A stretch of 64,000 nucleotides of DNA from Minisyncoccia bacterium (lineage in GTDB: Bacteria; Patescibacteriota; Minisyncoccia; UBA6257; 2-01-FULL-56-20), in assembly GCA_049997875.1 (NCBI GenBank), contig JBEKRC010000002.1, forward strand, positions 2,755 to 66,754, written 5' to 3'. Below the pieces are notes generated by a model. It was not told the DNA's origin and searched no databases. It was given only the letters and a program-made list of their open reading frames with translations. A program made the position numbers and the translations under genes. Positions 13,462-58,488 of the stretch are shown here, piece by piece (the stretch's first letter is position 1; each line of letters begins with the position of its first letter).

Positions 13462-13475
13462 AGGACGGCATTGTG

Positions 13476-24712: not shown

Positions 24713-24727
24713 ACATTTGTAGTTAAA

Positions 24728-28158: not shown

Positions 28159-28166
28159 ATTTTTTA

Positions 28167-33456: not shown

Positions 33457-33497
33457 CGCACTAAGTCCGTACGTTTTTCTTTGAGGCTGCGTTGCGC

Positions 33498-33503
33498 TAT
33501 AAT
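33498..33503 (+). promoter_or_regulatory. TATAAT -10 element immediately upstream of ATG 33510; a leaderless transcript is possible
   Basis: Perfect TATAAT at 33498-33503, 7 nt before ATG 33510. The -35 is weak. Confidence 0.25.
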
Positions 33504-33509
33504 CACGGT

Positions 33510-35452: not shown

Positions 35453-35459
35453 CGAAGCC

Positions 35460-36941: not shown

Positions 36942-36948
36942 TATAGGC

Positions 36949-37146: not shown

Positions 37147-38922
37147 ATGCCCGCCCTGACCCGCACGTGTCAAAACTGCAAATCCTCGTTCGCGATTGAG
37201 TCCGAGGATTTTGATTTCTATAAAAGAATAGCCGTCCCGCCGCCGACCTTCTGCCCGACGTGTCAGATACAGCGGCGGTTCTGCTTCAGGAATGAGCGGT
37301 CGTTCTATAAACGCAAAGAATCGTTGCGAGGGGAAGAGATTATTTCTTCCGTCTCTGCCGAAAAACCTTATAAGGTCTATGCGCAAAAAGATTGGTGGAG
37401 CGATGCGTGGGATCCGATGGTATATGGGCGGGAATATGATTTCAAAAAGCCGTTCTCGGCGCAATTCCGGGAATTGATGCGGGAGGTCCCGTGGCCAGCG
37501 CTCACGAACTGGAACGCAACGAACAGCGAGTATTGCAATTACACCACAGATAACAAAAACTGTTATCTTCTGATCGGTTCCGATTTCAACGAGGACTGCT
37601 CGTACGGTTACATGAACTTTCACTCCAAAGACAGCCTCGACCAACACTGGGTGGAGAAAGTTGAACTATCGTACGAGTGCATTGACGTGAATAATTGCTT
37701 TAAAGTGAGCTTTTGCCAAAACATACGTGACTGTACGGAATCGGTGTTTCTGTTTGATTGTACGAATTGTCATCATTGCGTGGGATGCGTGGGGCTTCGC
37801 AACAAGTCACATCACATTTTTAATGAGCCGTACGCGAGAGAGGAATTTGAAAAGAAATTCGCAGAACTTCGCCTTTCCACCCGTTCGGGCCTGGAAAAAA
37901 CCGGGAAAATATTCGCCGGCCTTAGATCAAAGTTCCCCCACAAATTTGCGGACATTTATAAATCGGTGAATTGCACGGGCGACAAAATACAGAACTCAAA
38001 GAACTGCCATGCGTGTTTTGACCTCCTGAACGAAGTGGAGGATTCAAAGAACGTGATCATTTCGGCGGTTTGCAAGGATGTGCATTGTGCGGATCATGTC
38101 GGGTGGGGAGGGGAACTTGTCTACGATTCAATCGTAGTGTTCTCCGGCGTAAAAAATGTCAGATTCTCGGCATTCATAAGGTCCTCTCAGGATATAACCT
38201 ATTCCATTTCATGTTCTTCCTCTTCCGATCTGTTCGGCTGTGTCGGGCTGAAGAATAAGCAGTATTGCATCCTGAACAAGCAATATTCCAAGGAGGCCTA
38301 TGGAACGCTCGTATCAAAGATCTTGAAGCATATGGATGAAATGCCCTATGTGGATTCCAACGGAGCGGTATATCGATTTGGGGAATTTTTTCCACCCGAA
38401 CTGTCACCCTTTGCTTACAACGAATCCATCGCCCAAGAATATTTTCCGCTCACAAAAAGCGAAGTGATGCGGCACAAGCTCGCCTGGCGGGAGGACGATG
38501 AAAAGCAGCACCATGTTTCCAAGATGGTGGAGGAACTTCCCGATGGCATCGCGGAAGTAACAGACGCGATTTTGGACGATATTATTGAGTGTGCGCACAA
38601 AGGGCAATGTGCGGACCAATGCACATCGGCTTTCCGGATCATTCCATCCGAGCTGCAGTTCCATAAGAGGTTGAATTTGCCTCTGTCCCGTCTTTGCCCG
38701 AATTGCCGATATTATGAACGGTTGCGGATGAGGAACCCAATGAAACTTTGGCATCGTGCCTGTGCATGCACGGGGACAGTTTCCTCAAATGGAGCATACG
38801 AGAACACGGTGTCGCATCAGCACGGGTCAAACAAGTGCCCCAATGAATTTGAAACCTCCTATGCCCCCGAGCGCTCCGAGATCGTTTACTGCGAGCAGTG
38901 CTATCAGGCGGAGGTCGCTTGA
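37147..38922 (+). CDS. Cys-rich tandem-paralog protein 1 (double zinc-ribbon-flanked CxxC-repeat protein)
   Basis: 591 aa with no signal peptide. N-terminal CQNC...FYKRIAVPPPTFCPTCQIQRR, central CxxCxGC repeats (FDCTNCHHCVGCVGLRNK; SCSSSSDLFGCVGLKNKQYCILNKQYSKEAY), and C-terminal LPLSRLCPNCRYYERLRMRNP...CPNEFETSYAPERSEIVYCEQCYQAEV. Confidence 0.8.
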   Translation: MPALTRTCQNCKSSFAIESEDFDFYKRIAVPPPTFCPTCQIQRRFCFRNERSFYKRKESLRGEEIISSVSAEKPYKVYAQKDWWSDAWDPMVYGREYDFKKPFSAQFRELMREVPWPALTNWNATNSEYCNYTTDNKNCYLLIGSDFNEDCSYGYMNFHSKDSLDQHWVEKVELSYECIDVNNCFKVSFCQNIRDCTESVFLFDCTNCHHCVGCVGLRNKSHHIFNEPYAREEFEKKFAELRLSTRSGLEKTGKIFAGLRSKFPHKFADIYKSVNCTGDKIQNSKNCHACFDLLNEVEDSKNVIISAVCKDVHCADHVGWGGELVYDSIVVFSGVKNVRFSAFIRSSQDITYSISCSSSSDLFGCVGLKNKQYCILNKQYSKEAYGTLVSKILKHMDEMPYVDSNGAVYRFGEFFPPELSPFAYNESIAQEYFPLTKSEVMRHKLAWREDDEKQHHVSKMVEELPDGIAEVTDAILDDIIECAHKGQCADQCTSAFRIIPSELQFHKRLNLPLSRLCPNCRYYERLRMRNPMKLWHRACACTGTVSSNGAYENTVSHQHGSNKCPNEFETSYAPERSEIVYCEQCYQAEVA

Positions 38923-38960
38923 AGTAGGCGGGGCCACATTAAAAAATCATTAAAAACTAT

Positions 38961-38989
38961 TTGACGTAGGATGCGGCGTTGCTATAATT
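38961..38989 (+). promoter_or_regulatory. Near-consensus sigma70 promoter
   Basis: TTGACG (38961-38966), 17-nt spacer, TATAAT (38984-38989). Confidence 0.55.
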
Positions 38990-38995
38990 AAGGAA

Positions 38996-39052
38996 ATCTT
39001 TGGGATTACCCACCGATCCCCGCCCCTTCACGGGGCGGGGTGACGATTTTTT
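38996..39052 (+). ncRNA. Candidate small RNA (about 55 nt), antisense to the 3' end of the MazF-like toxin gene
   Basis: The consensus promoter is followed within about 25 nt by an intrinsic terminator. It has a 9-bp GC stem (CCCCGCCCC-ttcac-GGGGCGGGG, 39018-39040) and a T6 tract (39047-39052). No plausible CDS lies between them. Confidence 0.4.
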
Positions 39053-39449
39053 GAGGATCATAAAATATAAGAAAAGCATCAATTATCTTTTGAAAGTTGC
39101 CCATGCTCAGCATGCCGACTTTTTGCGTAAGGCGTTTTGCGTCAAAAATTCTGATCTGACTGAGGATTGCCATACGTTTCTTCTCGCCATGTTGTATAGG
39201 AACATACCAGCTGCCAGTTTTTTGTTGTGTGGTGAGCGGAATTCCAAGAAAGGAATTGGCACTGAATTTTTTGAATACGAGAACCGGGCGCGTAAACCGC
39301 TTTCCCTTGCCGTAGATTTCTACGCCGATGTTCATGCCAATGCTGCACCACCAGATTTCTCCCTCCTTGAAGAGTTTTTGTGATGACAGGGTTTGTAATA
39401 TCACCGTCCTATGCCACCAGCCGAGAAGTGCGAGAAAATATTGTAGCAT
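39006..39449 (-). CDS. MazF/PemK-family toxin-like protein (orphan, opposite strand within the array)
   Basis: GEIWWCSIGMNIGVEIYGKGKRFTRPVLVFKK...GIPLTTQQK...LSQIRIFDAKRL follows the MazF/PemK/Kid pattern (G-D/E-I-W; R-P-x-L-V; conserved T; C-terminal RL). No antitoxin-sized ORF is adjacent. Confidence 0.55.
   Translation of the reverse strand: MLQYFLALLGWWHRTVILQTLSSQKLFKEGEIWWCSIGMNIGVEIYGKGKRFTRPVLVFKKFSANSFLGIPLTTQQKTGSWYVPIQHGEKKRMAILSQIRIFDAKRLTQKVGMLSMGNFQKIIDAFLIFYDPQKIVTPPREGAGIGG
39018..39052 (+). terminator. Rho-independent terminator (+ strand)
   Basis: Perfect 9-bp G/C stem, 5-nt loop, and a TTTTTT tail after a 6-nt spacer. Confidence 0.65.
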
Positions 39450-39521
39450 CTCGCCACCTTACCACACCGCCCATTAAAACTTTGTTAAATTTCCGACCTA
39501 CGAGCGTGTTATACTGTCTAT

Positions 39522-41300
39522 GTGGTGAACGAGACCAGAATTTGTCAGAACTGCAAACAGCGGTTTGCGATTGAATCGGGGGACTCCGCGTTTTACGAGA
39601 AGATGCAGGTGCCGCCGCCGACGTTTTGCCCGGACTGCCGGTTGCAACGGCGGATGGCGTTCCGCAATGAACGCACGCTCTACAAGCGGAAGTGTGAAGC
39701 CCCCGGGCACTCGGAGGAGGTAATCTCTGTCTTTTCGGCGGACAATCCGCAGCGGGTGTACGACCAGGAGGCGTGGTGGAGCGATTCCTGGGATCCCATG
39801 GCCTACGGGCGGGAACCCGATTTTGTGAAGCCGCTCATTCCGCAGATCATGGATTTATGGAAAGAGGTGCCGGACATCGCCCTCATGAACAACAACTGCG
39901 TGAACAGCGAGTATTGCAGCATCACCGAGGAGAACAAGAACTGCTATCTCGTGATCGGAGGGGATTTCAACGAAAACTCCTCTTATTCCTCGTTTATTTT
40001 CCACTGCAAGGAGACGCTTGATTGCCACTGGGTTTCCAAGAGCGAATTTTGTTACGAGAGCCTTGACTGCATCTCCTGCTCGCGGCTTTTCTTCAGCCAA
40101 TTCTGCGAAGGATGCTACGAGAGTGCGTTCCTCTTCAATTGCAAAAACTGCCACGATTGCTTCGGATGCACCAATTTGAACAACAAATCATACTGCATCT
40201 GGAACGTTCAGTATTCAAAAGAAGATTACGAAACTAAGATAAAGGAATTTGATCTGGGGAGTTCCGCCGCCATTTTCCAATTCAGGGAAAGAGCGAAAAA
40301 GGAGCAGCTTTTATATCCTCGGCGATTTGCGCGCGTGCTCCGGTCGGTCAATGCTACCGGCGACAATATTGAAGGCGGAAAAAACTGCAAGCGATCGTTT
40401 GAAATTTTTGATGGAGCCGAAGATTGCGCCTATCTATGGCTCATCTATTCGAAGGTGCGGGATTGTTACGACACCGATCATTCCGGCTTGAGCTCCGAAT
40501 TGTGCTGCGATTCGTCAACCATATATCCGGGGAGCCGCATTCTTTTCTCACGTTTCATCCGTTCCTGCAAGGATACGTATTACAGCTATAACTGCCACAA
40601 CTGCTCGGATATTTTTGGCTGCGTCGGACTTCGGAATAAAAAATACTGCGTTCTCAATAAACAATATTCGGAGAAGGAATATAGAACGCTGGTGCCAAAA
40701 CTCGTCGCACACATGAACAGCGCGCCGTACATCGATACCAAGGGAAGAATCTATAAATACGGCGAATTTTTCCCCGTTGAACTTTCGCCCTTTGCCTATA
40801 ACGAAACGGTTTCCCAAGAGCTTTTCCCGTTGACCAAGGGAGAAGCTGCAGCGCGCGGATATCAATGGCGCGAGCCAGAGAAAAGAGACCGCGATATAGC
40901 CAATGCGGTTTCCGGCGTGCCAGATCATATTAAAGATACCGACGATTCTATTCTTTCAAAGATCATAAAATGTGCTCATGCTGATTCCCATTGCTCGCAT
41001 CAATGCACGAAAGCATTCCGGCCGATCGCATCAGAACTTCAATTTTACAAACATGTAAAAATCGCCTTCCCTCGGTTATGTCCCAACTGCCGCCACTATG
41101 AGCGGATCGTAAAGAGGAACCCATTGAAGCTTTGGCATAGGAAGTGCATGTGTGGGGGAACACAATCAAAAAACTATGCAAACGCAGCGCCGCATTTTCA
41201 CAAGAACAATCCGTGCGGAAACGAATTTGAGACGACCTATGCCCCCGACCGGCCGGAGATCGTCTACTGCGAGCAATGTTACCAGGCAGAGGTCGTATAA
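39522..41300 (+). CDS. Cys-rich tandem-paralog protein 2
   Basis: GTG start. 592 aa with the same three-part architecture (N-ribbon CQNC..CPDCRLQRR; central CxxC repeats; C-ribbon CPNCRHYER...YCEQCYQAEVV). Conserved WWSDSWDP and GEFFPVELSPFAYNET blocks. Confidence 0.8.
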   Translation: MVNETRICQNCKQRFAIESGDSAFYEKMQVPPPTFCPDCRLQRRMAFRNERTLYKRKCEAPGHSEEVISVFSADNPQRVYDQEAWWSDSWDPMAYGREPDFVKPLIPQIMDLWKEVPDIALMNNNCVNSEYCSITEENKNCYLVIGGDFNENSSYSSFIFHCKETLDCHWVSKSEFCYESLDCISCSRLFFSQFCEGCYESAFLFNCKNCHDCFGCTNLNNKSYCIWNVQYSKEDYETKIKEFDLGSSAAIFQFRERAKKEQLLYPRRFARVLRSVNATGDNIEGGKNCKRSFEIFDGAEDCAYLWLIYSKVRDCYDTDHSGLSSELCCDSSTIYPGSRILFSRFIRSCKDTYYSYNCHNCSDIFGCVGLRNKKYCVLNKQYSEKEYRTLVPKLVAHMNSAPYIDTKGRIYKYGEFFPVELSPFAYNETVSQELFPLTKGEAAARGYQWREPEKRDRDIANAVSGVPDHIKDTDDSILSKIIKCAHADSHCSHQCTKAFRPIASELQFYKHVKIAFPRLCPNCRHYERIVKRNPLKLWHRKCMCGGTQSKNYANAAPHFHKNNPCGNEFETTYAPDRPEIVYCEQCYQAEVV

Positions 41301-41307
41301 TTGAAGC

Positions 41308-42954
41308 ATGACGGCCACGTGCACCTCGTGCGGCAAGGAGATTCAAGGAGTCGCGGAAGACACCGCATTTCTTGAGAGATTCGGCGTCTCGCATCCCGGG
41401 GAATGCGCGTTTTGCCTATGGCGACGACTGCTTGCGTTCTGGGTCTTCGGCAAATTCAGAAAGACGAAGTCCGCGCTCTCCGGCAAGACGATCATCACCA
41501 CGTTCGGAGAGGAGGTAAAATTCCCGCTCTACGACCGTACCGAATGGGTTTCGGATGCGTGGGACCCGCTCGCCTACGGGCAGGAATACGATCCAAGTCG
41601 TTCGTTCTTTGCGCAATTCAAAGAACTGCAGGATCGCGTGCCGCACCCGCAGCAATCAGGAACGAACAATCTTCGCTCCGATTGGTGCGACGACGTGTGG
41701 AGTTCAAAGGATTGTTATCTCATCCGATCGCTCCTGGGGTGCGAGAATTTGTATTACGGCTACCGTGACCTCCGCTGCAAGAACTCCGTTGACCTTGTTT
41801 TCTGCTTTGACGTGGAATCGTCGTATGACTGCGCGTACTGTTTCAAGGATTACAAAGTGCGGCATGCCTTTGATGCGCGGGACAGCATGGAAAGCGCATT
41901 CCTCTACGATTGTCGGAATGTGCAGAATTGCTTTATGTGCTGGAACCTTCGCAACAAGCGGTATCACATCTTGAACAAGCCCTACTCAAAAGAGGCGTAT
42001 TTTGAGGAATTGAAGAAATACGATCTGCGTTCGCGGAAAAGCGTTGATGCGTTGAAAACGGAGTTCGCGCAGATCCTCGCAAAAGAAGCAGTCCATCGGG
42101 TGAATTACAACGTGAAAACGGTCAGTTCCCTCGGCAATTTCCTTGAAGAATGCAAGAACTGTTATGATTGCTATTTCATCCAATTTGCCGAGAACAACCG
42201 GCACATGTTCCGCGGGCTCTACATGAAGGACTCCATCTATGGCGTTGGTACGATCGTAGAAAAAGGTTTGTATTCGGTCGTGGACAATGAGTGCTACGAC
42301 ACCATCGCCACCATGCATTGCGACAAATGCCGCTATTCCGCCTATTTGGATTTCTGCGAAGAATGCGAGTATTGCTTCGGGTGCGTGAGTTTGCGGAAGA
42401 AGAAATATTGCATTTTGAACAAGCAGTACTCCGAAGCGGAGTATCGCGCGTTATTACCGAAGATAAAAGAATCGATGGTGAAAATAGGGGAGTGGGGCAA
42501 ATTTTTCCCCTATGCTATGGCGTACGGCGGCTATAATTTTTCCCACGCGAACGCCTTCTTTCCCTCTATGAAGAAAGAGGTTGAAAAGATAGGCGGGATT
42601 TGGGAAGAGGTGCGCGAAACTGCAGCCGCCGACGGCATCTCGGGCAGCGCATTGCCCGATCGCATTGACGACGTATCGGACGATATGCCGCAGAAGCAGA
42701 TCATTTGTCCCAGAACCGGTTGGCGATTCAATATCGCTCCCGGTGAACTCGCGTTCTACAAGTCACACGGTATTCCACTGCCGCAATATCATTTTGATGT
42801 CCGCATTCTGGAGCTTTTCAAACCACTCACATGGATACGGCCGTTCGTCGCGAACTGCGTTTTCTGCAAGAAAGAAACCACACACTATTATCCACCCGAA
42901 GCCGGATATCAAAAGATAGCATGTGAGGATTGCTATATTAAGGAGGTATCATAA
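41308..42954 (+). CDS. Cys-rich tandem-paralog protein 3 (most diverged; terminal ribbons partly degenerate)
   Basis: 548 aa. N-terminus CTSC...CAFC, C-terminus CPRTGWRF...CVFCKK...CEDCY. The central CxxC repeat blocks are conserved (CRNVQNCFMCWNLRNKRYHILNKPYSKEAY). Confidence 0.75.
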   Translation: MTATCTSCGKEIQGVAEDTAFLERFGVSHPGECAFCLWRRLLAFWVFGKFRKTKSALSGKTIITTFGEEVKFPLYDRTEWVSDAWDPLAYGQEYDPSRSFFAQFKELQDRVPHPQQSGTNNLRSDWCDDVWSSKDCYLIRSLLGCENLYYGYRDLRCKNSVDLVFCFDVESSYDCAYCFKDYKVRHAFDARDSMESAFLYDCRNVQNCFMCWNLRNKRYHILNKPYSKEAYFEELKKYDLRSRKSVDALKTEFAQILAKEAVHRVNYNVKTVSSLGNFLEECKNCYDCYFIQFAENNRHMFRGLYMKDSIYGVGTIVEKGLYSVVDNECYDTIATMHCDKCRYSAYLDFCEECEYCFGCVSLRKKKYCILNKQYSEAEYRALLPKIKESMVKIGEWGKFFPYAMAYGGYNFSHANAFFPSMKKEVEKIGGIWEEVRETAAADGISGSALPDRIDDVSDDMPQKQIICPRTGWRFNIAPGELAFYKSHGIPLPQYHFDVRILELFKPLTWIRPFVANCVFCKKETTHYYPPEAGYQKIACEDCYIKEVS

Positions 42955-42959
42955 AGGCA

Positions 42960-44666
42960 ATGAACGCGGAAACCAGAGCCTGCCAAAACTGCAAACAGCA
43001 ATTCGCCGTTGATCCGGAGGATTTCCAGTTCTACGGGAAGGTTAATGTTCCGCCGCCGACCTTTTGCCCGGACTGCCGTTTTGAGCGGCGGCTTTTGTTT
43101 TGGAACGCGATCAATCTTTATAAACGACCCTGCGATTTATGCAAGAGATTCAACGTTTCGGTGTACGCGCCCGACGCCCCCTACACCGTGTACTGTCCCT
43201 TGTGCTGGTGGAGCGACAAGTGGGATCCGCTCACGTACGGACGGGAGTACGATTTCAGACGTCCCTTTTTTGAACAGCTCAACGAGCTGTGGCACGCGGC
43301 GCCGTTGTGCGGCTTGTCCATGGATCTTCCTTCAGCGAGATCCTCGCCGTATAACCACGACGCTGGCTATCTGAAAAATTGCTATTTTCTTTTTCACGCC
43401 GATACGTGCGAGGATTGCGCCTACGGCTATTTCTTGGGCAAATGCCGGATGCTTTTTGATTGCACGGCCATATTGCAGAGCGAATATGGATACGATGCTA
43501 TGCACTCATACAAGACAAATAGGTGCATCGGATCGCGGGACCAGCTCTCGGAGTCGTTGGAGTGTCTCTTCTGCCGCGATTGTCAGGGCTGCCAGAATTG
43601 TTTCGCCTCCGCGAACCTGAAGGGCCAGAAATATTACGCGTGGAACAAACCGCTTTCCAAACAAGAATATCTTGCGGAAATCGGTAAGTATGATTTGGGA
43701 TCCTACCGCGTTTACCGATCGCTCCAAGAAAAAGCGGCAGAGCACTGGAAAACGCAAATTCCGAAATCGGAATACAACGAATTCGTGAAAAATTGCACCG
43801 GCTCAAACGTGTTCTTTTCAAAAAACGCCAAGGATTGCATTGAGGTATCCGAGGTGGAAGATGGCCGGTATTGCTATCGCATGTTCGAGCCGACCAATAA
43901 GGATTGCTACGATATTTCCATGTGGGGCAATAACCTTTCGCTGTCGTACGACAGCTGCGTGGTGGGGGAGAATTCCACGCAGCTCCGGTTTACCCACGAA
44001 TCCGGCCTCAATCTTACCGATGCGGAATATTGCCGATTGTCCACGGGCGGCTCCCACCACTTCGGTTGCGTTTCGATCAAAAAAGGGGAATACCGGATTT
44101 TCAACAAGGTGTATTCCGCGAAAGAGTACGACGAACTTACAAAAAGGATTCGGAAACACATGGATGACATGCCATATACGGATGCGCGGGGCAATGTCTA
44201 TCGCTATGGCGAATTTTTTCCGCCGGAAATGTCGCCTTTTGCGTATAATGAAACGCTGGCACAGAATTTCTTTCCGCTCACGAGGGAGCAAGTCGCCGCG
44301 AAGAAATACGCATGGCGAGATCTTGAGGTAAAAGATATGGAAGCGACCATATCGGCTGCCGACCTCCCCGATCACACGAAAGATGTTACTGATGGAATTC
44401 TCAAGGAAATCATAAAATGTGCAACCTGCAGCCGCTCCTATCGGATCATAGAAATGGAACTGGCATTCCTTCGGCAGATGAATCTGCCTTTGCCGCGCCG
44501 TTGCCCCTTCTGCCGGATAAACGAGAAGTTGAATATCTGGGTGAAGACCAATGAACGCAACCGGCGCGTATGTGCGGAGTGCGGCGCCGCCATGGAGTCA
44601 AAGTATCGGGAAGACGAAGCGCCGGCGGTATATTGCCGGAAGTGTTATTTGCAAAAGATAATGTAG
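42960..44666 (+). CDS. Cys-rich tandem-paralog protein 4
   Basis: 568 aa. CQNCKQQFAVDPEDFQFYGKVNVPPPTFCPDCRFERR...; C-terminus LPLPRRCPFCRINEKL...CAECG...YCRKCYLQKIM. Confidence 0.8.
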   Translation: MNAETRACQNCKQQFAVDPEDFQFYGKVNVPPPTFCPDCRFERRLLFWNAINLYKRPCDLCKRFNVSVYAPDAPYTVYCPLCWWSDKWDPLTYGREYDFRRPFFEQLNELWHAAPLCGLSMDLPSARSSPYNHDAGYLKNCYFLFHADTCEDCAYGYFLGKCRMLFDCTAILQSEYGYDAMHSYKTNRCIGSRDQLSESLECLFCRDCQGCQNCFASANLKGQKYYAWNKPLSKQEYLAEIGKYDLGSYRVYRSLQEKAAEHWKTQIPKSEYNEFVKNCTGSNVFFSKNAKDCIEVSEVEDGRYCYRMFEPTNKDCYDISMWGNNLSLSYDSCVVGENSTQLRFTHESGLNLTDAEYCRLSTGGSHHFGCVSIKKGEYRIFNKVYSAKEYDELTKRIRKHMDDMPYTDARGNVYRYGEFFPPEMSPFAYNETLAQNFFPLTREQVAAKKYAWRDLEVKDMEATISAADLPDHTKDVTDGILKEIIKCATCSRSYRIIEMELAFLRQMNLPLPRRCPFCRINEKLNIWVKTNERNRRVCAECGAAMESKYREDEAPAVYCRKCYLQKIM

Positions 44667-44740
44667 AATTTTTTAATGTTTCTTGTCGGTTTTAAGGGGC
44701 TATCCTTTCTATTGCTTGGTTGCCTGGCAAAAGGAGTAAA

Positions 44741-44752
44741 ATGGAGGGGTAA
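44741..44752 (+). other. Three-codon mini-ORF (ATG GAG GGG TAA) with its own AAGGAG SD, immediately upstream of paralog 5
   Basis: AAGGAG is 6 nt upstream of ATG 44741, the stop is at 44750-44752, then a GGAGGGG-like SD precedes ATG 44757. Confidence 0.2.
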
Positions 44753-44756
44753 GGGC

Positions 44757-46481
44757 ATGGTTGCCGAGGCCAAAACCTGTGGGGCGTGCAAGGGGGAGTT
44801 CGCGCTTGAACCGGAGGATCTTGCATTCTACGGGAAGTTCGGCGTGCAGGCGCCGAAGATGTGCCCGCGGTGCCGCGCGCAGCGGAGGATGGCGTTCCGA
44901 AACGAGCGGGTGTTCTACAAACGAAAATGTGATAAGTGCGGGCGCGAGGTGGTTTCCATGTACAGTCCGAACAAACCGTACATAGTGTATTGTTACGAAT
45001 GCTGGTTCGCAGACGATTGGGATGCATTGAGCTACGGGACGGAGTACGATCCCGCGCGGCCGTTCATGGAACAGTTCCGCGAACTTTGGGAAAAGGTGCC
45101 GAAGGTGGCGCTCGTCTACATGCGGAGCGTGCGTTCGGAATACGTGAACATCTCGGCGGACAACAAGGATTGCTATATGCTTGTGGAGTCATCCAACAAC
45201 GAGGGATGTGTCCATTGTTATTGGATCCAGCAGTGCCGCGATCTCGTGGATGTTTCGTTCTCGCACCAGACGGAGCTTTCGTATGAATGCGACGATTGCT
45301 TCAATTGTTACGGACTGCAATATTCAAAAGGATGCCACGATTGCCGCAATAGTTATTTCTTGTTTGATTGCGTGGGATGCTCGGACTGCATCGGTTGCGC
45401 GAACCTCCGCAGCAAGCAGTACCATATTTGGAACGAGCCGCATTCCAAAGAGGAATACGAAGAGTTCCTCGCGGAGATGAAACTTGATACGCACGCCGGG
45501 GTTGAAGCGACGCACAGAAAGTTTGAGGAATTCTTGAACGCCCAGCCGCACAAATTCGCGGAGATCCTGAACGCGCCGGGCTGCACGGGGAATTACATCA
45601 AGAATGCCAAGAACTGCCGGCAGGTCTTCCATTGCTACGACGCGGAGGATGCGAAATACGGCATCCATGTGTGGCGCGACGCAAAGGACTGCATGGATGT
45701 GGATACGGCGGGCCGCGGTGCTCGTCTGATCTACAACTCCATCAATTCGGGCATTGAGGTTTCAAACTATATCGCCTGTGCGCAGTGCTGGACGTGTTCG
45801 TTCATGCAATATTCTTATTCCTGTTTCAATTGCAATCACTGTTTCGGTTGCGCGGGACTCCGGAAAAAGGACCGCTGCGTTCTGAATCGCGAATACGATA
45901 AGGCGTCGTACGAGCGGCTGCGCAGCGCCATCGTCGCCGAAATGAAGTCAAAAGGGGAATACGGCGAATTCTTTCCGGTCGCGATCAATACGTTCGGCTA
46001 CAACGAGAGCGCAGCACAGGAACAGTTCCCGCTCACGAAGGCGGAAGCGCTCGCGCAGGGATACAAATGGGAGGACGCCCATCGCGGAACCTTTGGGAAG
46101 GGAACCATCACGTGGGACAAGGTTCCCGATCACTATGACGGCTTTGATCCCACGCGGCATGTCTTTACGTGTGCGAATTGCAAACGGAATTATCTCATAA
46201 TCCCAAACGAAGCAATGTTCTATAAGAAGCTTGCGATCCCCGTGCCGCGCCTGTGTCCCGATTGCCGCCACACGCGCCGCTTCGCCGCCCGCGGGCCGAA
46301 CCGCGTTTCACGACAGCACTGCGAATGCGCGGGCGCGTCATCGGCCAACAAACGGTACCGCAACACGCGAGCTCATGCCCACGCGGACGCTCCATGCCCC
46401 AACGAATTTTGGACGAGCTATGCTGCGAACGACGAGCGGATCGTCTACTGCGAAGAGTGCTATAACGCAGAGGTGGCGTAG
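44757..46481 (+). CDS. Cys-rich tandem-paralog protein 5
   Basis: ATG at 44757 after GGAGGGG. 574 aa. MVAEAKTCGACKGEF...CPRCRAQRR, and a C-terminus CPDCRHTRRF...CPNEFWTSYAANDERIVYCEECYNAEVA. Confidence 0.8.
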   Translation: MVAEAKTCGACKGEFALEPEDLAFYGKFGVQAPKMCPRCRAQRRMAFRNERVFYKRKCDKCGREVVSMYSPNKPYIVYCYECWFADDWDALSYGTEYDPARPFMEQFRELWEKVPKVALVYMRSVRSEYVNISADNKDCYMLVESSNNEGCVHCYWIQQCRDLVDVSFSHQTELSYECDDCFNCYGLQYSKGCHDCRNSYFLFDCVGCSDCIGCANLRSKQYHIWNEPHSKEEYEEFLAEMKLDTHAGVEATHRKFEEFLNAQPHKFAEILNAPGCTGNYIKNAKNCRQVFHCYDAEDAKYGIHVWRDAKDCMDVDTAGRGARLIYNSINSGIEVSNYIACAQCWTCSFMQYSYSCFNCNHCFGCAGLRKKDRCVLNREYDKASYERLRSAIVAEMKSKGEYGEFFPVAINTFGYNESAAQEQFPLTKAEALAQGYKWEDAHRGTFGKGTITWDKVPDHYDGFDPTRHVFTCANCKRNYLIIPNEAMFYKKLAIPVPRLCPDCRHTRRFAARGPNRVSRQHCECAGASSANKRYRNTRAHAHADAPCPNEFWTSYAANDERIVYCEECYNAEVA

Positions 46482-46488
46482 CGAAGAC

Positions 46489-48264
46489 ATGGGACCCGAA
46501 ACGAAAACCTGCCAAAATTGCAAACAGTCGTTCGTCATTGACCCGGAGGATTTTCGGTTCTACGAAAAGATCGGCGTGCCGCCGCCCACCTGGTGCCCCG
46601 AGTGCCGGATGATACGGCGGATGGTGTGGAGAAATGAGCGCTCGTGGCATCGGAGAAGATGTGATGCGACGGGAAAGAACATACTCTCCATGTTTGCGCC
46701 CGATATGCCGTACAAAGTTTACGAACAGACGTTCTGGAAAAGTGATGCGTGGGATCCGCTCTCCTACGGTCGCGACTATGATTTTTCGAAACCGTTCTTC
46801 ACGCAGTTTCAGGAATTGCTCGTTGCCGTTCCTCATCCCAATCTCATCCAGAAAAATGCGGTGAATAGTGAATATTCCAACTATACCGTCAATGTCAAAA
46901 ATTGTTATTTCTTCGGAGGGGCTGCCACCGCCGAAGACAGTGGATACGGCTTCCCGCCGAACGTTCGGATCCGGGAATGCTTTGATGTTCACACGATGGG
47001 GGATGCGGAATCCTGTTATGATTCCGTTGATATTGAACAGTCGCAGGGGTTACGATTTTCGCAAAGTTGCGTCGGGTGCAGCAATTCGTATTTTCTTTAT
47101 GATTGCCGGAATTGCACCGATTGTTTTGGTTGCGTCGGGTTGCGCAACAAACAGTTTTATATATTCAATGAGGCACATTCCCGGGAGGAATATGCCAAAA
47201 GGCTCACTTCATTTATGCCAGGGACTTTCTCTGGCATCGCAGCCGCCCGTGAAAAGTTCAATGAGCTGAAGCTCGGATTCCCGAGGAAATACGCCGCAAT
47301 CCTGAAATCGGAGCGGGTGACCGGCGACGACATTGTGAATGCGCGCGATTGTACCTACTGCTTTGACGCAAAGAGAGAGGTGCAAAATTGCAAGTATTCG
47401 TTCCGTGTCCTTGATAACACAAAAGATGGCTATGATGGTCTCACGGCATGGGACGGTACAGAACTATTCTATGAAGTGATGAGCGTCACGGGGCAGCGGG
47501 TTATTGGCTCGGCCTGTATCTGGGGAGGATTTGACGTGATTCATTCTTACAATTGCTTTGATTGCAATAATGTCGTGGGGTGCATCGGATTGCACAACAA
47601 GTCGTACTGTATTTTCAACAAACAATACGGCGAGGGAGAGTATAAGGAACTTTCGCCGCGGATTCTCGCTCAGATGGATGAAGTACCCTATGTTGATCAA
47701 CGAGGAAGATCATACGGGCACGGCGACTTCTTCCCGCCAGATCTTGTGCCGTTTGCCTACAATGAAACCTTGGCACAAGATTATTTTCCAAAGACGAAAG
47801 AGGAAGCAGTTGCGATGGGATTTCGGTGGCGCGAGACCGAAGATAAAAAATATCAGATTACCATGAAGGTTGAAAAACTTCCAGATGACATTCATGCAGT
47901 TTCAGATTCCATACTCAATGAGGTGATTGAGTGCGCGCACGAGGACAAGTGCAACGATCACTGCGCGAAAGCGTTTCGCATTGTGCCGCAAGAACTCCAA
48001 TTTCTTAGAAAGATGAACGTACCCTTGCCGCGATTGTGTCCATCGTGTCGACAGATGGAACGGCTCCGACTTAAAAATCCGCTTCGGCTGTGGCATCGAC
48101 GCTGTGAGTGCAATGGTTCTCAATCTGCGAATGGGAGATATAGAAATGTCGCCGCGCACTCCCACGGTAAAAGTTTGTGTCCGACGGAATTTGAAACACC
48201 GTATGCGCCTGACCGTTCAGAGATTGTCTACTGCGAGCGGTGCTACAACGCGGAAGTGGTGTAG
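46489..48264 (+). CDS. Cys-rich tandem-paralog protein 6
   Basis: ATG at 46489. 591 aa. MGPETKTCQNCKQSFVIDPEDFRFYEKIGVPPPTWCPECRMIRR, and a C-terminus LPRLCPSCRQMERLRLKNP...CPTEFETPYAPDRSEIVYCERCYNAEVV. Confidence 0.8.
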   Translation: MGPETKTCQNCKQSFVIDPEDFRFYEKIGVPPPTWCPECRMIRRMVWRNERSWHRRRCDATGKNILSMFAPDMPYKVYEQTFWKSDAWDPLSYGRDYDFSKPFFTQFQELLVAVPHPNLIQKNAVNSEYSNYTVNVKNCYFFGGAATAEDSGYGFPPNVRIRECFDVHTMGDAESCYDSVDIEQSQGLRFSQSCVGCSNSYFLYDCRNCTDCFGCVGLRNKQFYIFNEAHSREEYAKRLTSFMPGTFSGIAAAREKFNELKLGFPRKYAAILKSERVTGDDIVNARDCTYCFDAKREVQNCKYSFRVLDNTKDGYDGLTAWDGTELFYEVMSVTGQRVIGSACIWGGFDVIHSYNCFDCNNVVGCIGLHNKSYCIFNKQYGEGEYKELSPRILAQMDEVPYVDQRGRSYGHGDFFPPDLVPFAYNETLAQDYFPKTKEEAVAMGFRWRETEDKKYQITMKVEKLPDDIHAVSDSILNEVIECAHEDKCNDHCAKAFRIVPQELQFLRKMNVPLPRLCPSCRQMERLRLKNPLRLWHRRCECNGSQSANGRYRNVAAHSHGKSLCPTEFETPYAPDRSEIVYCERCYNAEVV

Positions 48265-48310: not shown

Positions 48311-50311
48311 ATGGAGGAAGTTCCCGAAAAAAACGTCATTTATTTCGCACGAACCGATTTTCGCAATCAAGACCGGCTTTTTGGTATCAAGCGGAGCGAT
48401 CGGCGCCAGCACATGTATGTCATAGGAAAAACCGGCACCGGCAAAAGCGCGCTCCTCAACAACATGGCCGTGCAGGACATCGCGAACGGCGAGGGGCTTT
48501 GCGTGGTGGACCCGCACGGCGAGCTCGTGGAGGGACTCATGAAAAGGATTCCGGAGGAAAGGATGAAAGATGTCATCTATTTCAATCCGGCAGATACGGA
48601 TTTTCACATCGGCTTCAACGTATTGGAGCTGCCCGATCCGAAGTACAAGCACCTTGTGGCATCGGGGCTCATGGGAATTTTCACGAAGATCTGGGCAGGC
48701 GTCTGGTCGCCGCGCATGGAATACATTTTGAATAATTGCGTGCTCGCGCTCCTGGACACTCCGGGTTCCACGCTCCTCGGCATCCCTCGGCTTCTGACCG
48801 ACAAAGATTACCGGCAGAAGATTATCACGAACATAAAGGACCCTGTTGTGAAAGCCTTCTGGATCCATGAATTTGAAGGATGGCAGGACCGGTTCAGGAA
48901 CGAGGCCATCGCGCCGATCCAAAACAAGGTAGGCCAATTTCTTTCCACCTCTCTCGTGCGCAACATCGTCGGCCAATCAAAGAGCACTGTGGACATTTTT
49001 GACGTGATGAACGAGGGAAAAATCTTCCTCGTAAACGTTTCCAAGGGCCGCATCGGGGAAGACAACTCTGCGCTCCTGGGCGCGATGCTTATCACGAAAA
49101 TCCAGCTTTCGGCAATGGAGCGCGTGCGCGTCCCCGAGGACGAACGCGTGGACTTTTATCTTTATGTGGACGAGTTCCAGAACTTCGCCACGGATTCTTT
49201 CGCGGGCATCCTTTCCGAAGCGCGGAAGTACCGCCTGGATCTTATTCTTGCGCACCAATATATCGGCCAGCTCGTCACCGATACGTCCACAAGGGTGCGC
49301 GACGCGATCTTTGGCAACGTGGGAACGATGGTCACGTTCCGGGTGGGTGCTACCGATGCGGAGTTCCTGGAGAACGAGTTCACGCCCGAGTTCGTGATAG
49401 AAGACATCGTGAATCTTCCGAATTATTCCATCTATCTGAAGCTTATGGTGGATGGCGTGACCGCGCGCCCATTTTCCGCAATCACGCTCCCGCCGCTTCA
49501 GGTGAAAACCTCCGCGATGGTGGAATCCGAAATCATTAGGATGTCACAGAAGCGCTACGCCCGGCCGCGCGAGATCGTAGAGGAAGAAATCAATCGCTGG
49601 AGCGGCGTGATGGGACCGCCTGCGGCTACCAGTGCGGAAAAGAAAGGCGGAGATGCGACGAGGTACGAAGCCATATGTTCTTCATGCGGCAAGATGACGA
49701 CGCTGCCGTTTGAGCCGACGCCGGGCCGGCCGGTGTATTGCCGCGATTGTCTGAAAAAAATTGAGGCCGGCGAGCTCCAGCCGGTACGGGTGCCGCGCGC
49801 GTCAGTCGCGCGCGCGAGGCCGCAGAAAAAATACGCAGATGATTTGAGTTATCTCGGCATTGAGTTCCCGGAGCAGGGAGCGCCGGCCGAGCCGCAGTCC
49901 ACGGCAAGAAGGGCGCCCACGCCGGTGCGCCCCATGGGTTCCATGGACGGAAGGGAAAGGACAGGGGTAGGGGTAGGAGCGCCAATTTCCGGTTCCGAGC
50001 CAAAAGCGGTTATGCCAACCTCCGTACCGGTCACTGCGCCAACCGCGCCGCCATCCGCCGAGCCATCGGAGCGGACGCTTTCGCTGTCCGAATTGAAATC
50101 GGCGGATCGGAAACCGAAGCTGAAGAAATTGCAACAACATGAGGTGATCAACATTTCCGAACTTCGGGAGGCAATCAAGGCATCATTGAGCGCGGATATC
50201 GGTGCGGGTCCCGCGCAGGCCGCCGAGGTGGAAAAAAGCGACAGCGCCGACGCCGATAAGCAGGATGGCGAAGAAGACAACAGCGACGCGGAGCATGTGC
50301 GCCGCATTTGA
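48311..50311 (+). CDS. FtsK/HerA-superfamily P-loop ATPase, paralog 2, with C-terminal zinc ribbon and an acidic low-complexity tail
   Basis: GKTGTGKS Walker A, VVDPHGE, DFYLYVDEFQNF. The C-terminus carries CSSCGKMTTLPFEPTPGRPVYCRDCL, then a Pro/Ala/Glu-rich tail. Confidence 0.7.
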   Translation: MEEVPEKNVIYFARTDFRNQDRLFGIKRSDRRQHMYVIGKTGTGKSALLNNMAVQDIANGEGLCVVDPHGELVEGLMKRIPEERMKDVIYFNPADTDFHIGFNVLELPDPKYKHLVASGLMGIFTKIWAGVWSPRMEYILNNCVLALLDTPGSTLLGIPRLLTDKDYRQKIITNIKDPVVKAFWIHEFEGWQDRFRNEAIAPIQNKVGQFLSTSLVRNIVGQSKSTVDIFDVMNEGKIFLVNVSKGRIGEDNSALLGAMLITKIQLSAMERVRVPEDERVDFYLYVDEFQNFATDSFAGILSEARKYRLDLILAHQYIGQLVTDTSTRVRDAIFGNVGTMVTFRVGATDAEFLENEFTPEFVIEDIVNLPNYSIYLKLMVDGVTARPFSAITLPPLQVKTSAMVESEIIRMSQKRYARPREIVEEEINRWSGVMGPPAATSAEKKGGDATRYEAICSSCGKMTTLPFEPTPGRPVYCRDCLKKIEAGELQPVRVPRASVARARPQKKYADDLSYLGIEFPEQGAPAEPQSTARRAPTPVRPMGSMDGRERTGVGVGAPISGSEPKAVMPTSVPVTAPTAPPSAEPSERTLSLSELKSADRKPKLKKLQQHEVINISELREAIKASLSADIGAGPAQAAEVEKSDSADADKQDGEEDNSDAEHVRRI

Positions 50312-55785: not shown

Positions 55786-55795
55786 ATATTTATTC

Positions 55796-56881: not shown

Positions 56882-56895
56882 GGGGCAAGTGGATG

Positions 56896-58376: not shown

Positions 58377-58488
58377 TAACGTAAGTATACAAAATTGGCT
58401 TGATATAAGTTAGCGATATGCAGTATGATGCAGCCAGCAGCCTCCGATGCTTGTTGTGATAAAAGAGGCGCTGGAAGGAAGGTGAACC

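Follow-up and report, generated by a model that had tools for sequence, protein, structure and literature searches.

T4CPs have accessory or adaptor subunits, among them the zinc-binding DotN in the Legionella DotL complex and TraM, which acts with TraD. The gene for such a subunit neighbors that of a VirD4-family ATPase; the subunit, itself not an ATPase, docks on its partner and helps it select substrates. Here, we describe a Cys-rich protein family encoded in a similar position, and one of the T4CP adaptors is likewise Cys-rich and zinc-binding; the likeness is a functional analogy only, and kinship to DotN or TraM in sequence or fold is not expected. DotN and TraM belong to complete T4SSs, whereas the ATPases of Patescibacteria mostly lie far from virB4: 5713 VirD4-like T4CPs were found in 2918 genomes, 148 of them near virB4 (PMC12102498). 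The authors of that survey state that exaptation of T4CPs in Patescibacteria “cannot be ruled out”, and the only T4CP homolog put to a genetic test, that of a Saccharimonadia species, proved non-essential (PMC12102498).

By sequence, the nearest described domains are zf_Tbcl (PF13451) and zf_Tbcl_2 (PF23477; TIGR04272), which cover fingers of 35–50 aa. All three terminal modules of our family share with these domains a CxxC knuckle and a second CxxC at the start of a helix, but add a FY-x-K...P-x-P...CPxCR-x3-R...RN extension and, in the long forms, inserted extra Cys/His ligands. The ~420-aa centre of the family lies outside both domains. Insect antifreeze proteins bind ice through a Thr-rich face; they are small, and are secreted and held by disulfide bonds. 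Their β-helices (spruce budworm CfAFP, 1M8N; Tenebrio TmAFP, 1EZG) show 5–14% identity to the family, which does not imply homology and, unlike these proteins, the paralogs described below lack a signal peptide and have zinc-finger caps.

A six-paralog array and its flanking genes

We analyzed a window of 64,000 nucleotides from a Minisyncoccia bacterium (contig JBEKRC010000002.1), one of the ultra-small Patescibacteria. Six same-strand (+) paralog ORFs of 548–592 aa fill positions 37147–48264, within a cassette ordered DUF8128-like protein, membrane protein, ATPase, n family copies, ATPase with zinc finger:

33492..34877, + strand: DUF8128-like protein, 461 aa, hydrophobic N-terminus; first gene of the cassette
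34877..35452, + strand: small membrane protein, 191 aa; hydropathy shows two strongly hydrophobic segments
35460..36941, + strand: ATPase 1, soluble VirD4/TraD/TrwB-like (T4CP-like) P-loop ATPase, short type, ~493 aa
37147..38922, + strand: paralog 1, 591 aa, 34 Cys, canonical long type; scores 897 bits against the family HMM
39522..41300, + strand: paralog 2, 592 aa, 40 Cys, GTG start
41308..42954, + strand: paralog 3, 548 aa, 30 Cys; divergent conserved subfamily, zinc-less C-module
42960..44666, + strand: paralog 4, 568 aa, 35 Cys; short type, extra ribbon C58/C61/C79/C82, canonical CxxC-x17-CxxC end
44757..46481, + strand: paralog 5, 574 aa, 42 Cys; extra ribbon and long terminal finger
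46489..48264, + strand: paralog 6, 591 aa, 32 Cys, canonical long type
48311..50311, + strand: ATPase 2, T4CP-like, 666 aa; C-terminal CxxC-x17-CxxC finger (aa 451–483), low-complexity tail

Paralogs 5 and 6 have raw ORFs that open further upstream, at 44676 and 46231, respectively. We set the start of paralog 5 at 44757 on the basis of the alignment, ortholog lengths and a Shine-Dalgarno-like GGAGG ~8 nt upstream of the ATG, and that of paralog 6 at 46489 on the basis of the alignment and its position 7 nt past the paralog 5 stop. Gaps between successive paralogs are 599, 7, 5, 90 and 7 nt, and a promoter-like TAGACA-18-TATAAT, a consensus match only, precedes paralog 1 at 36913–36942. The other paralogs share 33–52% pairwise identity with paralog 1; the six diverged anciently. 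Cysteines make up 5.4–7.3% of each protein (34, 40, 30, 35, 42 and 32 in paralogs 1–6), so that the 40–45 per protein given in a first-pass annotation of this DNA was too high, while the absence of a signal peptide that it claimed was borne out in all six paralogs, since hydropathy showed neither a signal-peptide-like nor a TM-like hydrophobic stretch in them.

The chief clue to function, the flanking ATPases, is missing from that annotation. The raw ORF of ATPase 1 starts earlier, at 35409, and its Pfam matches are TrwB_AAD_bind (35.7 bits), T4SS-DNA_transf, DUF87 and TraG-D_C, with no TM segment found by hydropathy. ATPase 2 matches TrwB_AAD_bind (45 bits), zf_Tbcl_2 (56 bits, above cutoff) and TIGR04272 (57.6 bits). 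The standalone DUF8128-like sequence gave no Pfam hit; its ortholog cluster aligns to the N-terminal 60–360 aa of 790-aa DUF8128+T4CP fusions, and PF26449 is detected on the fused form. The small membrane protein, whose start overlaps the DUF8128-like stop (TAATG), also gave no Pfam hit. Unlike the DotL/TraD systems, the window encodes soluble ATPases with separate DUF8128-like and membrane proteins.

Terminal fingers, central solenoid and subfamilies

Independent AlphaFold models of paralog 2 (pLDDT 85.2, pTM 0.87) and paralog 5 (pLDDT 86.7, pTM 0.88) have the same topology and establish the fold class: each protein is predicted to be a rigid two-part β-solenoid with three treble-clef fingers, and aromatic and acidic loops wrapped round it. 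The parts of paralog 2 are:

39522..39695, + strand: N-module, aa 1–58; treble-clef finger C8/C11/C36/C39, then Arg-rich helix (R40, R44, N49)
39879..40211, + strand: solenoid half A, aa ~120–230; 12-residue Cys ladder, ends C207-x2-C210-x2-C213-x2-C216, N228
40314..40667, + strand: solenoid half B, aa ~265–382; ends C367, C376, N379, Y382
40761..40829, + strand: GEFFPxELSPFAYNET...P loop, aa 414–436
40965..41147, + strand: C-module, aa 482–542; treble-clef finger C484/C495/C520/C523, Arg helix (R524, R528)
41145..41300, + strand: terminal finger, aa 542–592; C542/C565/C583/C586; long forms insert a C544/H558/H560 site

Profile–profile comparison upheld the claimed homology of the N- and C-modules (hhalign probability 99.2%, E 6.8e-20, 49 columns) and the claimed internal duplication of the core (half A against half B, 99.8%, E 1.3e-27, 104 columns); both similarities are far above chance. 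The two CxxCxxCxGC...NK.YC.xN..YSKEEY blocks lie at 207–236 and 358–387, a spacing of 151 aa rather than the ~140 aa first reported. Both peptides quoted in the first-pass annotation map to paralog 2 (aa 24–58 and 508–544), and the two end modules it described stand; it did not distinguish the third, terminal finger.

The end modules are treble-clef fingers weakly matching zf_Tbcl and zf_Tbcl_2, and not the classical zinc ribbons originally described. Nine of the 52 members tested matched zf_Tbcl (PF13451; best E 6.9e-6) and 12 matched zf_Tbcl_2 (PF23477/TIGR04272; best E 7e-4). Within the window, the paralog 6 N-terminus matches PF13451 at E 0.0039 and the paralog 4 terminal finger weakly matches zf_Tbcl_2/TIGR04272, with all six paralogs under the curated Pfam cutoffs (17.5 vs 24 bits, 16.3 vs 27 bits). 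Already-named domains were found in part for the termini (zf_Tbcl, zf_Tbcl_2), but not for the ~420-aa centre.

Four-Cys sets are complete in the N-module of 169/176 members, the C-module of 150/176 and the terminal finger of 174/176, the last carrying the extra C/H/H site in 111/176. The N-module of the paralog 2 model comprises a β-hairpin knuckle and a helix beginning at CPxC. Long forms have additional H486/C491 in the C-module, where R524 is 100% and E505 99% conserved among 508 diverse members, and some subfamilies carry one or two further Cys/His sites. The earlier view of cytoplasmic, zinc-binding proteins is plausible, given CxxC pairs conserved at 97–99%, the lack of a signal peptide, and zinc binding by a related domain. 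[quoted passage not shown]

Half A is periodic, with autocorrelation peaks at 12, 24 and 36 residues (alignment columns), and is modelled with moderate confidence only in both predictions (pLDDT 55–65 in paralog 2, mostly 64–84 in paralog 5). The GEFFP loop is predicted to be ordered and non-regular (pLDDT ≥90, paralog 2 model), and its G414, P418, Y426 and N427 are 97–99% conserved in the 508 diverse members. The WWSD and GEFFP blocks, initially called invariant, are strongly conserved across the family but degenerate in paralog 3.

Paralog 3 retains the N-module and terminal finger. The cysteine loss ascribed to it is real, with three of four C-module ligands replaced (T/H/V at reference positions 495, 520 and 523) and Cys58 also gone, but it does not mark a decaying copy. 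Its orthologs in other genomes are 71% (locus L046, 13518–15200), 53% and 48–49% identical, against 30–33% for its own window neighbors, and the same T/H/V substitutions occur in at least 8 other loci. Since the orthologs are closer than the neighbors and share the substitutions, paralog 3 represents a conserved subfamily. The gene order paralog 3 then paralog 4 is found again in L046 and L041. The paralog 2 subfamily, elsewhere often a singleton, is the best conserved (external orthologs 57–65% identical); orthologs of paralogs 4 and 5 are 50–55% and 61–62% identical, respectively.

Linkage of the family to ATPases

The family comprises 4337 clusters at 50% identity, is centred on Patescibacteria and is essentially absent from viral contigs. 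Its members are always annotated “hypothetical” in databases, paralog 2 being identical to MGC9599111.1 (“hypothetical protein [Minisyncoccia bacterium]”), and no Pfam or NCBIfam model spanning the whole protein was found. The family is unnamed though very widespread; the architecture claimed as novel is indeed undescribed, but thousands of homologs were already deposited as “hypothetical protein”.

The family arrays share operons with a VirD4/TraD-like ATPase subfamily that is itself highly conserved, and the linkage is reciprocal. A T4CP-like ATPase is the commonest immediate neighbor of the family (21/78 loci; runner-up 5), although common ancestry of the sampled genomes partly inflates this and the following linkage counts. 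Family–ATPase gaps are often <100 bp, on the same strand in all cases but one. The ATPase becomes more frequent as the arrays grow: it is present in 5/34 one-copy loci, 14/31 loci with two or three copies and 9/13 with four or more, and 29 of the 34 single-copy loci, L002 for example, have no ATPase within 10 kb. Searching in reverse, from the ATPase alone, recovered the family in 42/80 loci, on the same strand every time; the family is present in 27/33 loci of at least 8 kb whose ATPase orthologs are ≥68% identical, and in 0/19 loci of 43–50% homologs.

The order [ATPase with finger], family, [short ATPase] occurs in at least 15 metagenome loci, and the order DUF8128-like, ATPase, family is also seen again in metagenome loci. 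DUF8128-like genes lie upstream of the family in 11 loci, an ORF cluster homologous to the small membrane protein is present in 6, and the ATPase linkage recurs in another class, Gracilibacteria (L086, L090). The terminal finger of the family is homologous to the tail finger of ATPase 2 (hhalign 96.5%, E 1e-9). Orthologs of ATPase 1 in other lineages are 66–87% identical, as expected of a housekeeping machine and not of a mobile-element gene. Outside Patescibacteria, members occur in single copy without the ATPase, as fusions to GNAT or IMPase-like enzymes, which points to some ATPase-independent role for the family.

Candidate functions of the family

We tentatively propose that the family provides zinc-stabilised scaffolds or adaptors acting with the flanking VirD4/TraD-like ATPases, a reading that is quite possible while falling short of probable. 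The paralogs would be non-enzymatic and work together with hexameric ATPases that would come with DUF8128-like and small membrane proteins of their own. As adaptors, different paralogs may stand in for one another or assemble into hetero-oligomers; docked on the ATPase, they would present the nucleic acid or protein that is its substrate. Likely contact surfaces would be the terminal finger common to the family and the ATPase, together with the invariant Arg helices. We infer both a physical paralog–ATPase interaction and the adaptor role. Against this reading, the paralogs are near-neutral (pI 6.2–7.0), which disfavors general nucleic-acid binding.

It is unlikely that the family is an autonomous nucleic-acid-binding housekeeping factor, adjacent to the ATPase through a shared substrate only. 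Arg-rich treble clefs at the rod ends would then bind DNA or RNA, in the nucleoid, DNA uptake or RNA handling. R524 is invariant, and R40, R44 and R528 are 92–96% conserved even in CPEE/CPDE variants that lack zinc ligands; singletons sit among DNA/RNA genes (between gyrB and ybaB in L002, near RNase T and RNase H in L001, near der and RNase III in L084); and T4CP, FtsK and HerA ATPases are in many cases DNA translocases. Less likely again is effector cargo, recognised by the T4CP and exported by the epibiotic cell to its host or surface without a signal peptide, the Cys ladders forming extracellular disulfides like those of the insect antifreeze β-helices. Tandem paralog arrays beside coupling-protein genes look like effector loci, and the Bartonella bep effector genes adjoin virD4. 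The paralogs lack signal peptides, the structures nearest to theirs are curli and Cys-rich helices that are extracellular and disulfide-bonded, and Patescibacteria possess cell-wall-anchored disulfide-forming enzymes (bioRxiv 10.1101/335083). Yet orthologs are 45–71% identical across deep lineages, making the subfamilies ancient, whereas effectors evolve fast; treble clefs of the CxxC...CxxC kind typically mark zinc sites inside cells; non-Patescibacteria members lack an ATPase and have cytosolic enzymes as fusion partners; and T4CP genes are near a T4SS in only 148/5713 cases (PMC12102498), with no virB4 among the window ORFs scanned.

More doubtful still is an unrecognised enzyme in the conserved centre, such as an acyl- or group-transferase on a left-handed β-helix, with structural zinc fingers. 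The conserved acidic and aromatic loops could form its active site, a point against the scaffold reading. Unlike the left-handed β-helix acyltransferases and γ-carbonic anhydrases (LpxA, GlmU, PglB, Cam), the family has a period of 12, not 18, with no sign of their trimeric active sites and no Hexapep Pfam match at E ≤1. The least probable role for the cysteines is redox or metal chemistry, the proteins then carrying Fe-S (CxxCxxCxxC), storing or buffering zinc, or acting with DnaK/DnaJ as a redox-switch holdase. Each protein has 30–42 Cys, the C207–C216 run is intact in 111/176 members, and the cassette lies between dnaK and dnaJ in a Nomurabacteria-like clade (L018, L026, L039, L064). But 37% of members lack the complete run, the homologous half B has none, and the run departs from the CxxCxxCxxxCP of ferredoxins; Pfam matches at E ≤1 include neither Fer4 nor radical-SAM. 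The dnaK/dnaJ synteny is confined to that one clade, which also shares cysS and an AI-2E transporter, and is therefore counted as one event, and strict length and loop conservation suggests a specific shape, not a metal sponge.

On the favored reading of zinc-stabilised scaffolds or adaptors, the “orphan” T4CP-like ATPases of Patescibacteria gain a candidate partner in this Cys-rich family.

The paralog array and its relatives

Six open reading frames on the + strand fill window positions 37147-48264, so the tandem array reported by the first-pass annotation is real. Each encodes a cysteine-rich protein of an unnamed family, and together they occupy 10.4 kb of the 64 kb (locus tags of the window genes run from ABSE18_01875 onward in this Minisyncoccia MAG).

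37147-38922, + strand: paralog 1, 591 aa, 34 Cys
39522-41300, + strand: paralog 2 (GTG start), 592 aa, 40 Cys
41308-42954, + strand: paralog 3, 548 aa, 30 Cys
42960-44666, + strand: paralog 4, 568 aa, 35 Cys
44757-46481, + strand: paralog 5, 574 aa, 42 Cys
46489-48264, + strand: paralog 6, 591 aa, 32 Cys

Successive genes are separated by 599, 7, 5, 90 and 7 nt, and the other five proteins are 33–52% identical to paralog 1. Cysteines number 30–42 per protein (5.4–7.3%), rather than the 40–45 first estimated. For paralogs 5 and 6 the raw ORFs begin upstream of the assigned starts. Paralog 5 was given its start at 44757 from the alignment, the length of its orthologs and a preceding GGAGG site, and paralog 6 at 46489 from the alignment and its position 7 nt past the paralog 5 stop. 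An in-frame upstream ATG of paralog 5 (44676-44756) would add 27 hydrophobic residues with a lipobox-like LLGC end; the GGAGG site and the short orthologs argue against this start, which was rejected. A PemK/MazF-like toxin gene (39006-39449, − strand, 147 aa, Pfam E 4.8e-11) lies on the opposite strand within the 599 nt that separate paralogs 1 and 2, with no space for a neighboring antitoxin ORF, and at a Gracilibacteria locus (L086) a ParE toxin pair (13431-13996) is inserted between the family genes and an ATPase.

We counted family copies within ±10 kb at each genome locus. One, two and three copies were found at 33, 17 and 16 loci, and four, five, six and nine copies at 6, 4, 4 and 1 loci, with 97/98 adjacent pairs on one strand. 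The arrays are old. Window paralogs 2-6, not paralog 1, have relatives in other genomes that are clearly closer than their array-mates. Paralog 3, which had been read as a decaying or neofunctionalized copy, is 71% identical to a protein at L046 (13518-15200), 53% to one at L048 and 48–49% to those at L067 and L036, versus 30–33% to its window neighbors. Its replacement of three C-terminal module cysteines by T, H and V recurs exactly in at least eight other loci, and the gene order paralog 3 to paralog 4 is seen again in L046 and L041. The ortholog identity, the common substitution pattern and the recurring order argue against decay and for a conserved, zinc-poorer subfamily.

A word-indexed search returned at least 5759 relatives. 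The best 120 of these are 54–65% identical and include Liptonbacteria, Staskawiczbacteria, Nomurabacteria, Paceibacterota and Minisyncoccia; those with a named source all belong to Patescibacteria lineages and are annotated 'hypothetical protein'. An exhaustive HMM search restricted to the central region matched 4337 clusters (50% identity) with E<=1e-3, of which 1893 reach E<=1e-30. The best 150 clusters are nearly all 430–610 aa proteins with the center at about residues 65–475, or shorter N-truncated records, the clear exception being P0231, a 731-aa fusion to a GNAT acetyltransferase. Using one representative genome per species, at least 585 family matches were found. Gracilibacteria and Peregrinibacteria contain a second branch, and a small one is found in clearly non-Patescibacteria genomes, which encode flagellar FliH/FliI, pyruvate:ferredoxin oxidoreductase, thiolase and DsbD. 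Outside Patescibacteria the gene is single-copy and sometimes enzyme-fused, either to a GNAT acetyltransferase (in 8 clusters, of which one is labelled Bdellovibrionales; for example L084 10001-12196, 731 aa, between der and guaB with flagellar genes on the contig) or to an IMPase/HisN-like phosphatase (L088 3687-6185, 832 aa, adjoining a spermine-synthase-like gene). A polyamine link, raised by this neighbor, a deoxyhypusine synthase at L089 and the GNAT fusion, was discarded, as it concerns two or three loci only. A scan of viral contigs was essentially negative, with one marginal partial match at a contig end, which argues against a phage or mobile-element family. A TrmB-family regulator adjoins the family gene at loci from different branches (L086 9097-9861, L090 9060-9884 and L001 12886-13650), lying divergent and directly upstream in L086 and L090, and is possibly a dedicated regulator.

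The remaining window is ordinary chromosome, encoding a class II aminoacyl-tRNA synthetase, a murA-like gene, mreB, holB, frr, rseP, MacB/HlyD, a CAP-domain protein, glycosyltransferases, an ABC exporter and pyrB/pyrC/pyrD/carB; no tRNA or Rfam matches were found in it. A low-GC island at about 24000-30000 (29–34% GC versus 50–57% elsewhere) holds GT4 glycosyltransferases, a Wzx-like polysaccharide flippase and a PMT_2 glycosyltransferase, and is probably a horizontally acquired surface-glycan cluster. The de novo pyrimidine genes at 53615-62130 on the − strand (pyrB, a dihydroorotase-like amidohydrolase, pyrD and carB) are notable because nucleotide biosynthesis is absent in many Patescibacteria.

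Treble-clef end modules and a duplicated solenoid core

Whether these proteins belong to a named family depends on the region compared. The ends partly match zf_Tbcl and zf_Tbcl_2, and the whole protein has nothing above the Pfam or NCBIfam cutoffs, which none of the six paralogs reaches. The best window score against zf_Tbcl (PF13451) is that of paralog 6 (17.5 bits, E 0.0039, aa 5-43; gathering cutoff 24); at E<=0.05 this model matches 9/52 family members, with a best E of 6.9e-6, and PF13451 matches are precomputed for a few database members. The terminal part of paralog 4 reaches 16.3 bits against zf_Tbcl_2 (PF23477, E about 0.01, cutoff 27) and 15.1 bits against TIGR04272 (CxxC-x17-CxxC, E about 0.01, cutoff 36), and PF23477 matches 12/52 members at E<=0.05. 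One NCBI family record is titled 'zinc-ribbon domain containing protein'. On this sequence evidence the family reads as a distant relative of PF13451, and not a called member, and its ends appear to work like zf_Tbcl/zf_Tbcl_2 fingers, distantly related and below curated cutoffs. Among the PADLOC defense HMMs there was no meaningful family match (one at 15 bits, E 0.005, with no stretch passing alone). Searchable literature, including that on DUF8128, PF13451 and Cys-rich Parcubacteria/CPR proteins, yielded no description of the family; CPR-C4 and the CAP-domain family are unrelated to this one.

Profile-profile comparison based on a 52-sequence family alignment confirmed that the N- and C-terminal modules are homologous to each other (probability 99.2%, E 6.8e-20, 49 columns). 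Candidate metal sites were counted in 176 full-length members from 79 genome loci, with residue numbers following paralog 2.

C8/C11/C36/C39: site A, four ligands complete in 169/176
C58/C61/C81/C84: site B, optional ribbon (paralogs 4 and 5), complete in 88/176
C207-x2-C210-x2-C213-x2-C216: run closing solenoid half A, complete in 111/176
C484/C495/C520/C523: site C, complete in 150/176
C542/C565/C583/C586: site D, complete in 174/176
C544/H558/H560: extra site within the D insert, complete in 111/176

The site A pairs C8/C11 and C36/C39 are each 96–97% conserved. Paralog 4 ends in C538-x2-C541-x17-C559-x2-C562, that is, with CxxC-x17-CxxC spacing, and in long forms the first pair of this terminal finger becomes C542/C565 with an insert. 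H558/H560 looks like part of an extra metal site because the pair co-varies with C544; a HUH-nuclease reading was rejected, the middle residue being F, Q, A or S and the pair missing in 35%. The end modules had been described as zinc ribbons, and the models show a treble clef and not a classical ribbon. The N-module places strands at residues 4-7 and 14-17 and a helix from residue 37, and the C-module has an identical layout, each CxxC...CPxC module being modelled as a β-hairpin knuckle followed by a helix beginning at the second Cys pair. Small Methanosarcina proteins consisting of a CxxC-x17-CxxC domain bind zinc, as measured by ICP-MS (PMC12704099).

The core is an internal duplication, as had been proposed, with residues 120-260 matching 261-400 (probability 99.8%, E 1.3e-27, 104 columns); the repeat blocks lie 151 aa apart, not about 140. 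The WWSD and GEFFP blocks, earlier called invariant, are degenerate in paralog 3. AlphaFold2 models of paralog 2 (pLDDT 85.2, pTM 0.87) and, in an independent run with a broader alignment, paralog 5 (pLDDT 86.7, pTM 0.88) agree in topology and place two runs of short strands between the end modules. Confidence is very high for half B (pLDDT 90-98 in the paralog 2 model) and moderate for half A (55-65 for paralog 2; for paralog 5 mostly 64-84). In half A, autocorrelation along the columns of the family alignment has maxima at 12, 24 and 36 residues, and when rows of 12 are set out by eye the cysteines return at coil positions 3, 9 and 12. In 508 diverse members P117, N379 and R524 are 100% conserved, and Q108, N228, G280, Y382, G414, N427, C484 and E505 99%; N228 and N379 occupy equivalent positions closing each solenoid half. 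The roughly 420-aa center has no match in any library scanned. The strand runs and the 12-residue periodicity support the initial guess of a β-solenoid. No solved homolog is apparent, since Foldseek against the PDB gave no match at E<=0.001 and an HMM search of PDB sequences was likewise empty (the best match of the 52-sequence family profile, influenza M1 at E 0.19, is spurious). The ryegrass ice-binding protein can be named beside this Cys-laddered solenoid, and Cys-rich antifreeze and hexapeptide β-helices resemble the core in shape only; the family shows neither the hexapeptide-repeat signature (Pfam Hexapep) nor an 18-residue coil.

Linkage to coupling-protein-like ATPases

Two ATPases flank the array, and two further genes lie upstream.

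33492..34877, + strand: DUF8128-like protein, 461 aa
34877..35452, + strand: small membrane protein, 191 aa
35460-36941, + strand: ATPase 1, P-loop ATPase of the VirD4/TraD/TrwB family
48311-50311, + strand: ATPase 2, P-loop ATPase of the VirD4/TraD/TrwB family

ATPases 1 and 2 score 35.7 and 45 bits against TrwB_AAD_bind (cutoff 20.5), 29.2 and 25.6 bits against T4SS-DNA_transf (cutoff 20.1), and 21.5 (just under the cutoff of 22) and 26.3 bits against TraG-D_C. Judged by these domains, both would be coupling proteins, with a predicted P-loop NTPase and all-alpha domain; their NCBIfam equivalog scores are far under cutoff, and mad8/HerA models of PADLOC matched them weakly. The C-terminal CxxC-x17-CxxC finger of ATPase 2 passes zf_Tbcl_2 (56 bits) and TIGR04272 (57.6 bits), and the zf_Tbcl_2 finger profile of the ATPase tail matches the terminal-finger profile of the family (96.5%, E 1e-9, 33 columns). 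Neither ATPase has a TM segment, and no VirB4-like or relaxase Pfam match was found among the window ORFs scanned. The DUF8128-like and small membrane proteins may provide the membrane anchor in trans. Ortholog-cluster members of the DUF8128-like protein match the DUF8128 region at the N-terminus of fused, 790-aa ATPases. The start of the membrane-protein gene overlaps the preceding stop (TAATG, 34875-34879), and 7 nt separate it from ATPase 1 (35452-35460), which suggests that the three genes are translationally coupled.

We surveyed this linkage in both directions. Among the 79 genome loci found through the family, 28 contain an ATPase, which is the commonest immediate neighbor (21/78 loci; the runner-up in 5), usually lies <100 bp away and is on the same strand in all copies but one. 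Its presence grows with the array, from 5/34 loci with one copy to 14/31 with two or three and 9/13 with four or more. Conversely, an alignment of only the short ATPase was used to search metagenome contigs, and the family was present in 42/80 ATPase loci, on the same strand every time. For close orthologs (>=68% identical, >=8 kb of sequence) this rose to 27/33, versus 0/19 for an internal control of 43–50% homologs. Three arrangements recur: an ATPase with finger of about 700 aa, one to three family genes and an ATPase of about 500 aa; DUF8128-like, ATPase and family; and a fused DUF8128-ATPase adjoining the family, one of these in a Gracilibacteria genome. In a Nomurabacteria-like clade (L018, L026, L039 and L064) dnaK and dnaJ flank the whole ATPase-family-ATPase cassette, and cysS and an AI-2E transporter follow downstream; these dnaK/dnaJ and cysS neighborhoods were dismissed as a functional clue, the synteny being restricted to a single clade. 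In L039 and L064 the dnaJ ORF is short (217–219 aa) and directly upstream of the family gene.

Short-ATPase orthologs are 66–87% identical to ATPase 1, a range that spans named candidate lineages such as Nomurabacteria, Staskawiczbacteria and Parcubacteria (loci include L011, L046, L052, L036 and L041). The short ATPase is better conserved than the Cys-rich family, which is unusual in a conjugation-type gene. In a 2025 survey, 2918 Patescibacteria genomes contained 5713 VirD4-like coupling proteins, about two per genome and nearly all distant from a secretion system; only 148 lay near virB4, relaxases were very few, and the role of the coupling proteins was left open (PMC12102498).

Proposed role of the family

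The family is large, strongly constrained and cytoplasmic-looking. It combines three treble-clef modules, with near-universal ligand sets, and a duplicated Cys-laddered solenoid; at operon level it is reciprocally linked to a highly conserved ATPase pair, with one member of which it has a finger domain in common. We tentatively favor a role as zinc-stabilized scaffold or adaptor of the ATPase assembly. The proteins would be rigid scaffolds; docked on the assembly as alternative or hetero-oligomeric adaptors, they would present its substrate. Caution is due because singleton and non-Patescibacteria members lack the ATPase, and because the family pI is near neutral.

Other roles were weighed against the same data. 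An autonomous nucleic-acid-binding factor is unlikely. In its favor, the Arg residues after each CPxC are conserved over 508 diverse members (R40 94%, R44 92%, R528 96%), and at least in GNAT-fused P0231, CPEE/CPDE replaces CPxC and the Arg helices are retained. That the proteins are themselves exported cargo or effectors of the neighboring ATPases seems a little less probable still. None of the six paralogs contains a hydrophobic stretch resembling a signal peptide or TM helix; for signal peptides this agrees with the first-pass annotation.

We consider an unrecognized enzyme improbable. Lowest in our estimation is a redox, Fe-S, metal-store or chaperone role: the motif is CxxCxxCxxC (complete in 111/176 members) and not the ferredoxin-type CxxCxxCxxxCP motif, and no Fer4-family Pfam match occurs in the paralogs at E<=1.

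Under the scaffold and adaptor reading, the cassette resembles coupling proteins paired with accessory subunits, DotN and TraM being examples. Those systems are defined by a membrane-anchored ATPase, a T4SS and a relaxase, whereas the cassette lacks all three. The family and cassette are built from known parts, and no description of the cassette was found in searchable literature. It is possible, though we put it forward as speculation, that the family, ATPase 1, the finger-tailed ATPase, the DUF8128-like protein and the membrane proteins constitute an undescribed T4SS-independent machine. Ancient paralogous zinc-finger rods would then be interchangeable adaptors of a membrane-associated hexameric translocase, common in Paceibacteria (Minisyncoccia), with matching linkage at two Gracilibacteria-type loci.

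Patescibacteria form a large part of bacterial diversity and are mostly uncultured, with minimal genomes; here six copies belong to an unnamed family with thousands of relatives and no solved homolog. A cysteine-laddered β-solenoid with treble-clef zinc-finger caps would be a new natural design. The linkage, reciprocal and strand-consistent, delimits a testable cassette and gives one subfamily of orphan coupling ATPases a specific candidate partner. If the proposed machine exists, it would explain thousands of 'orphan' coupling-protein genes kept by tiny genomes.
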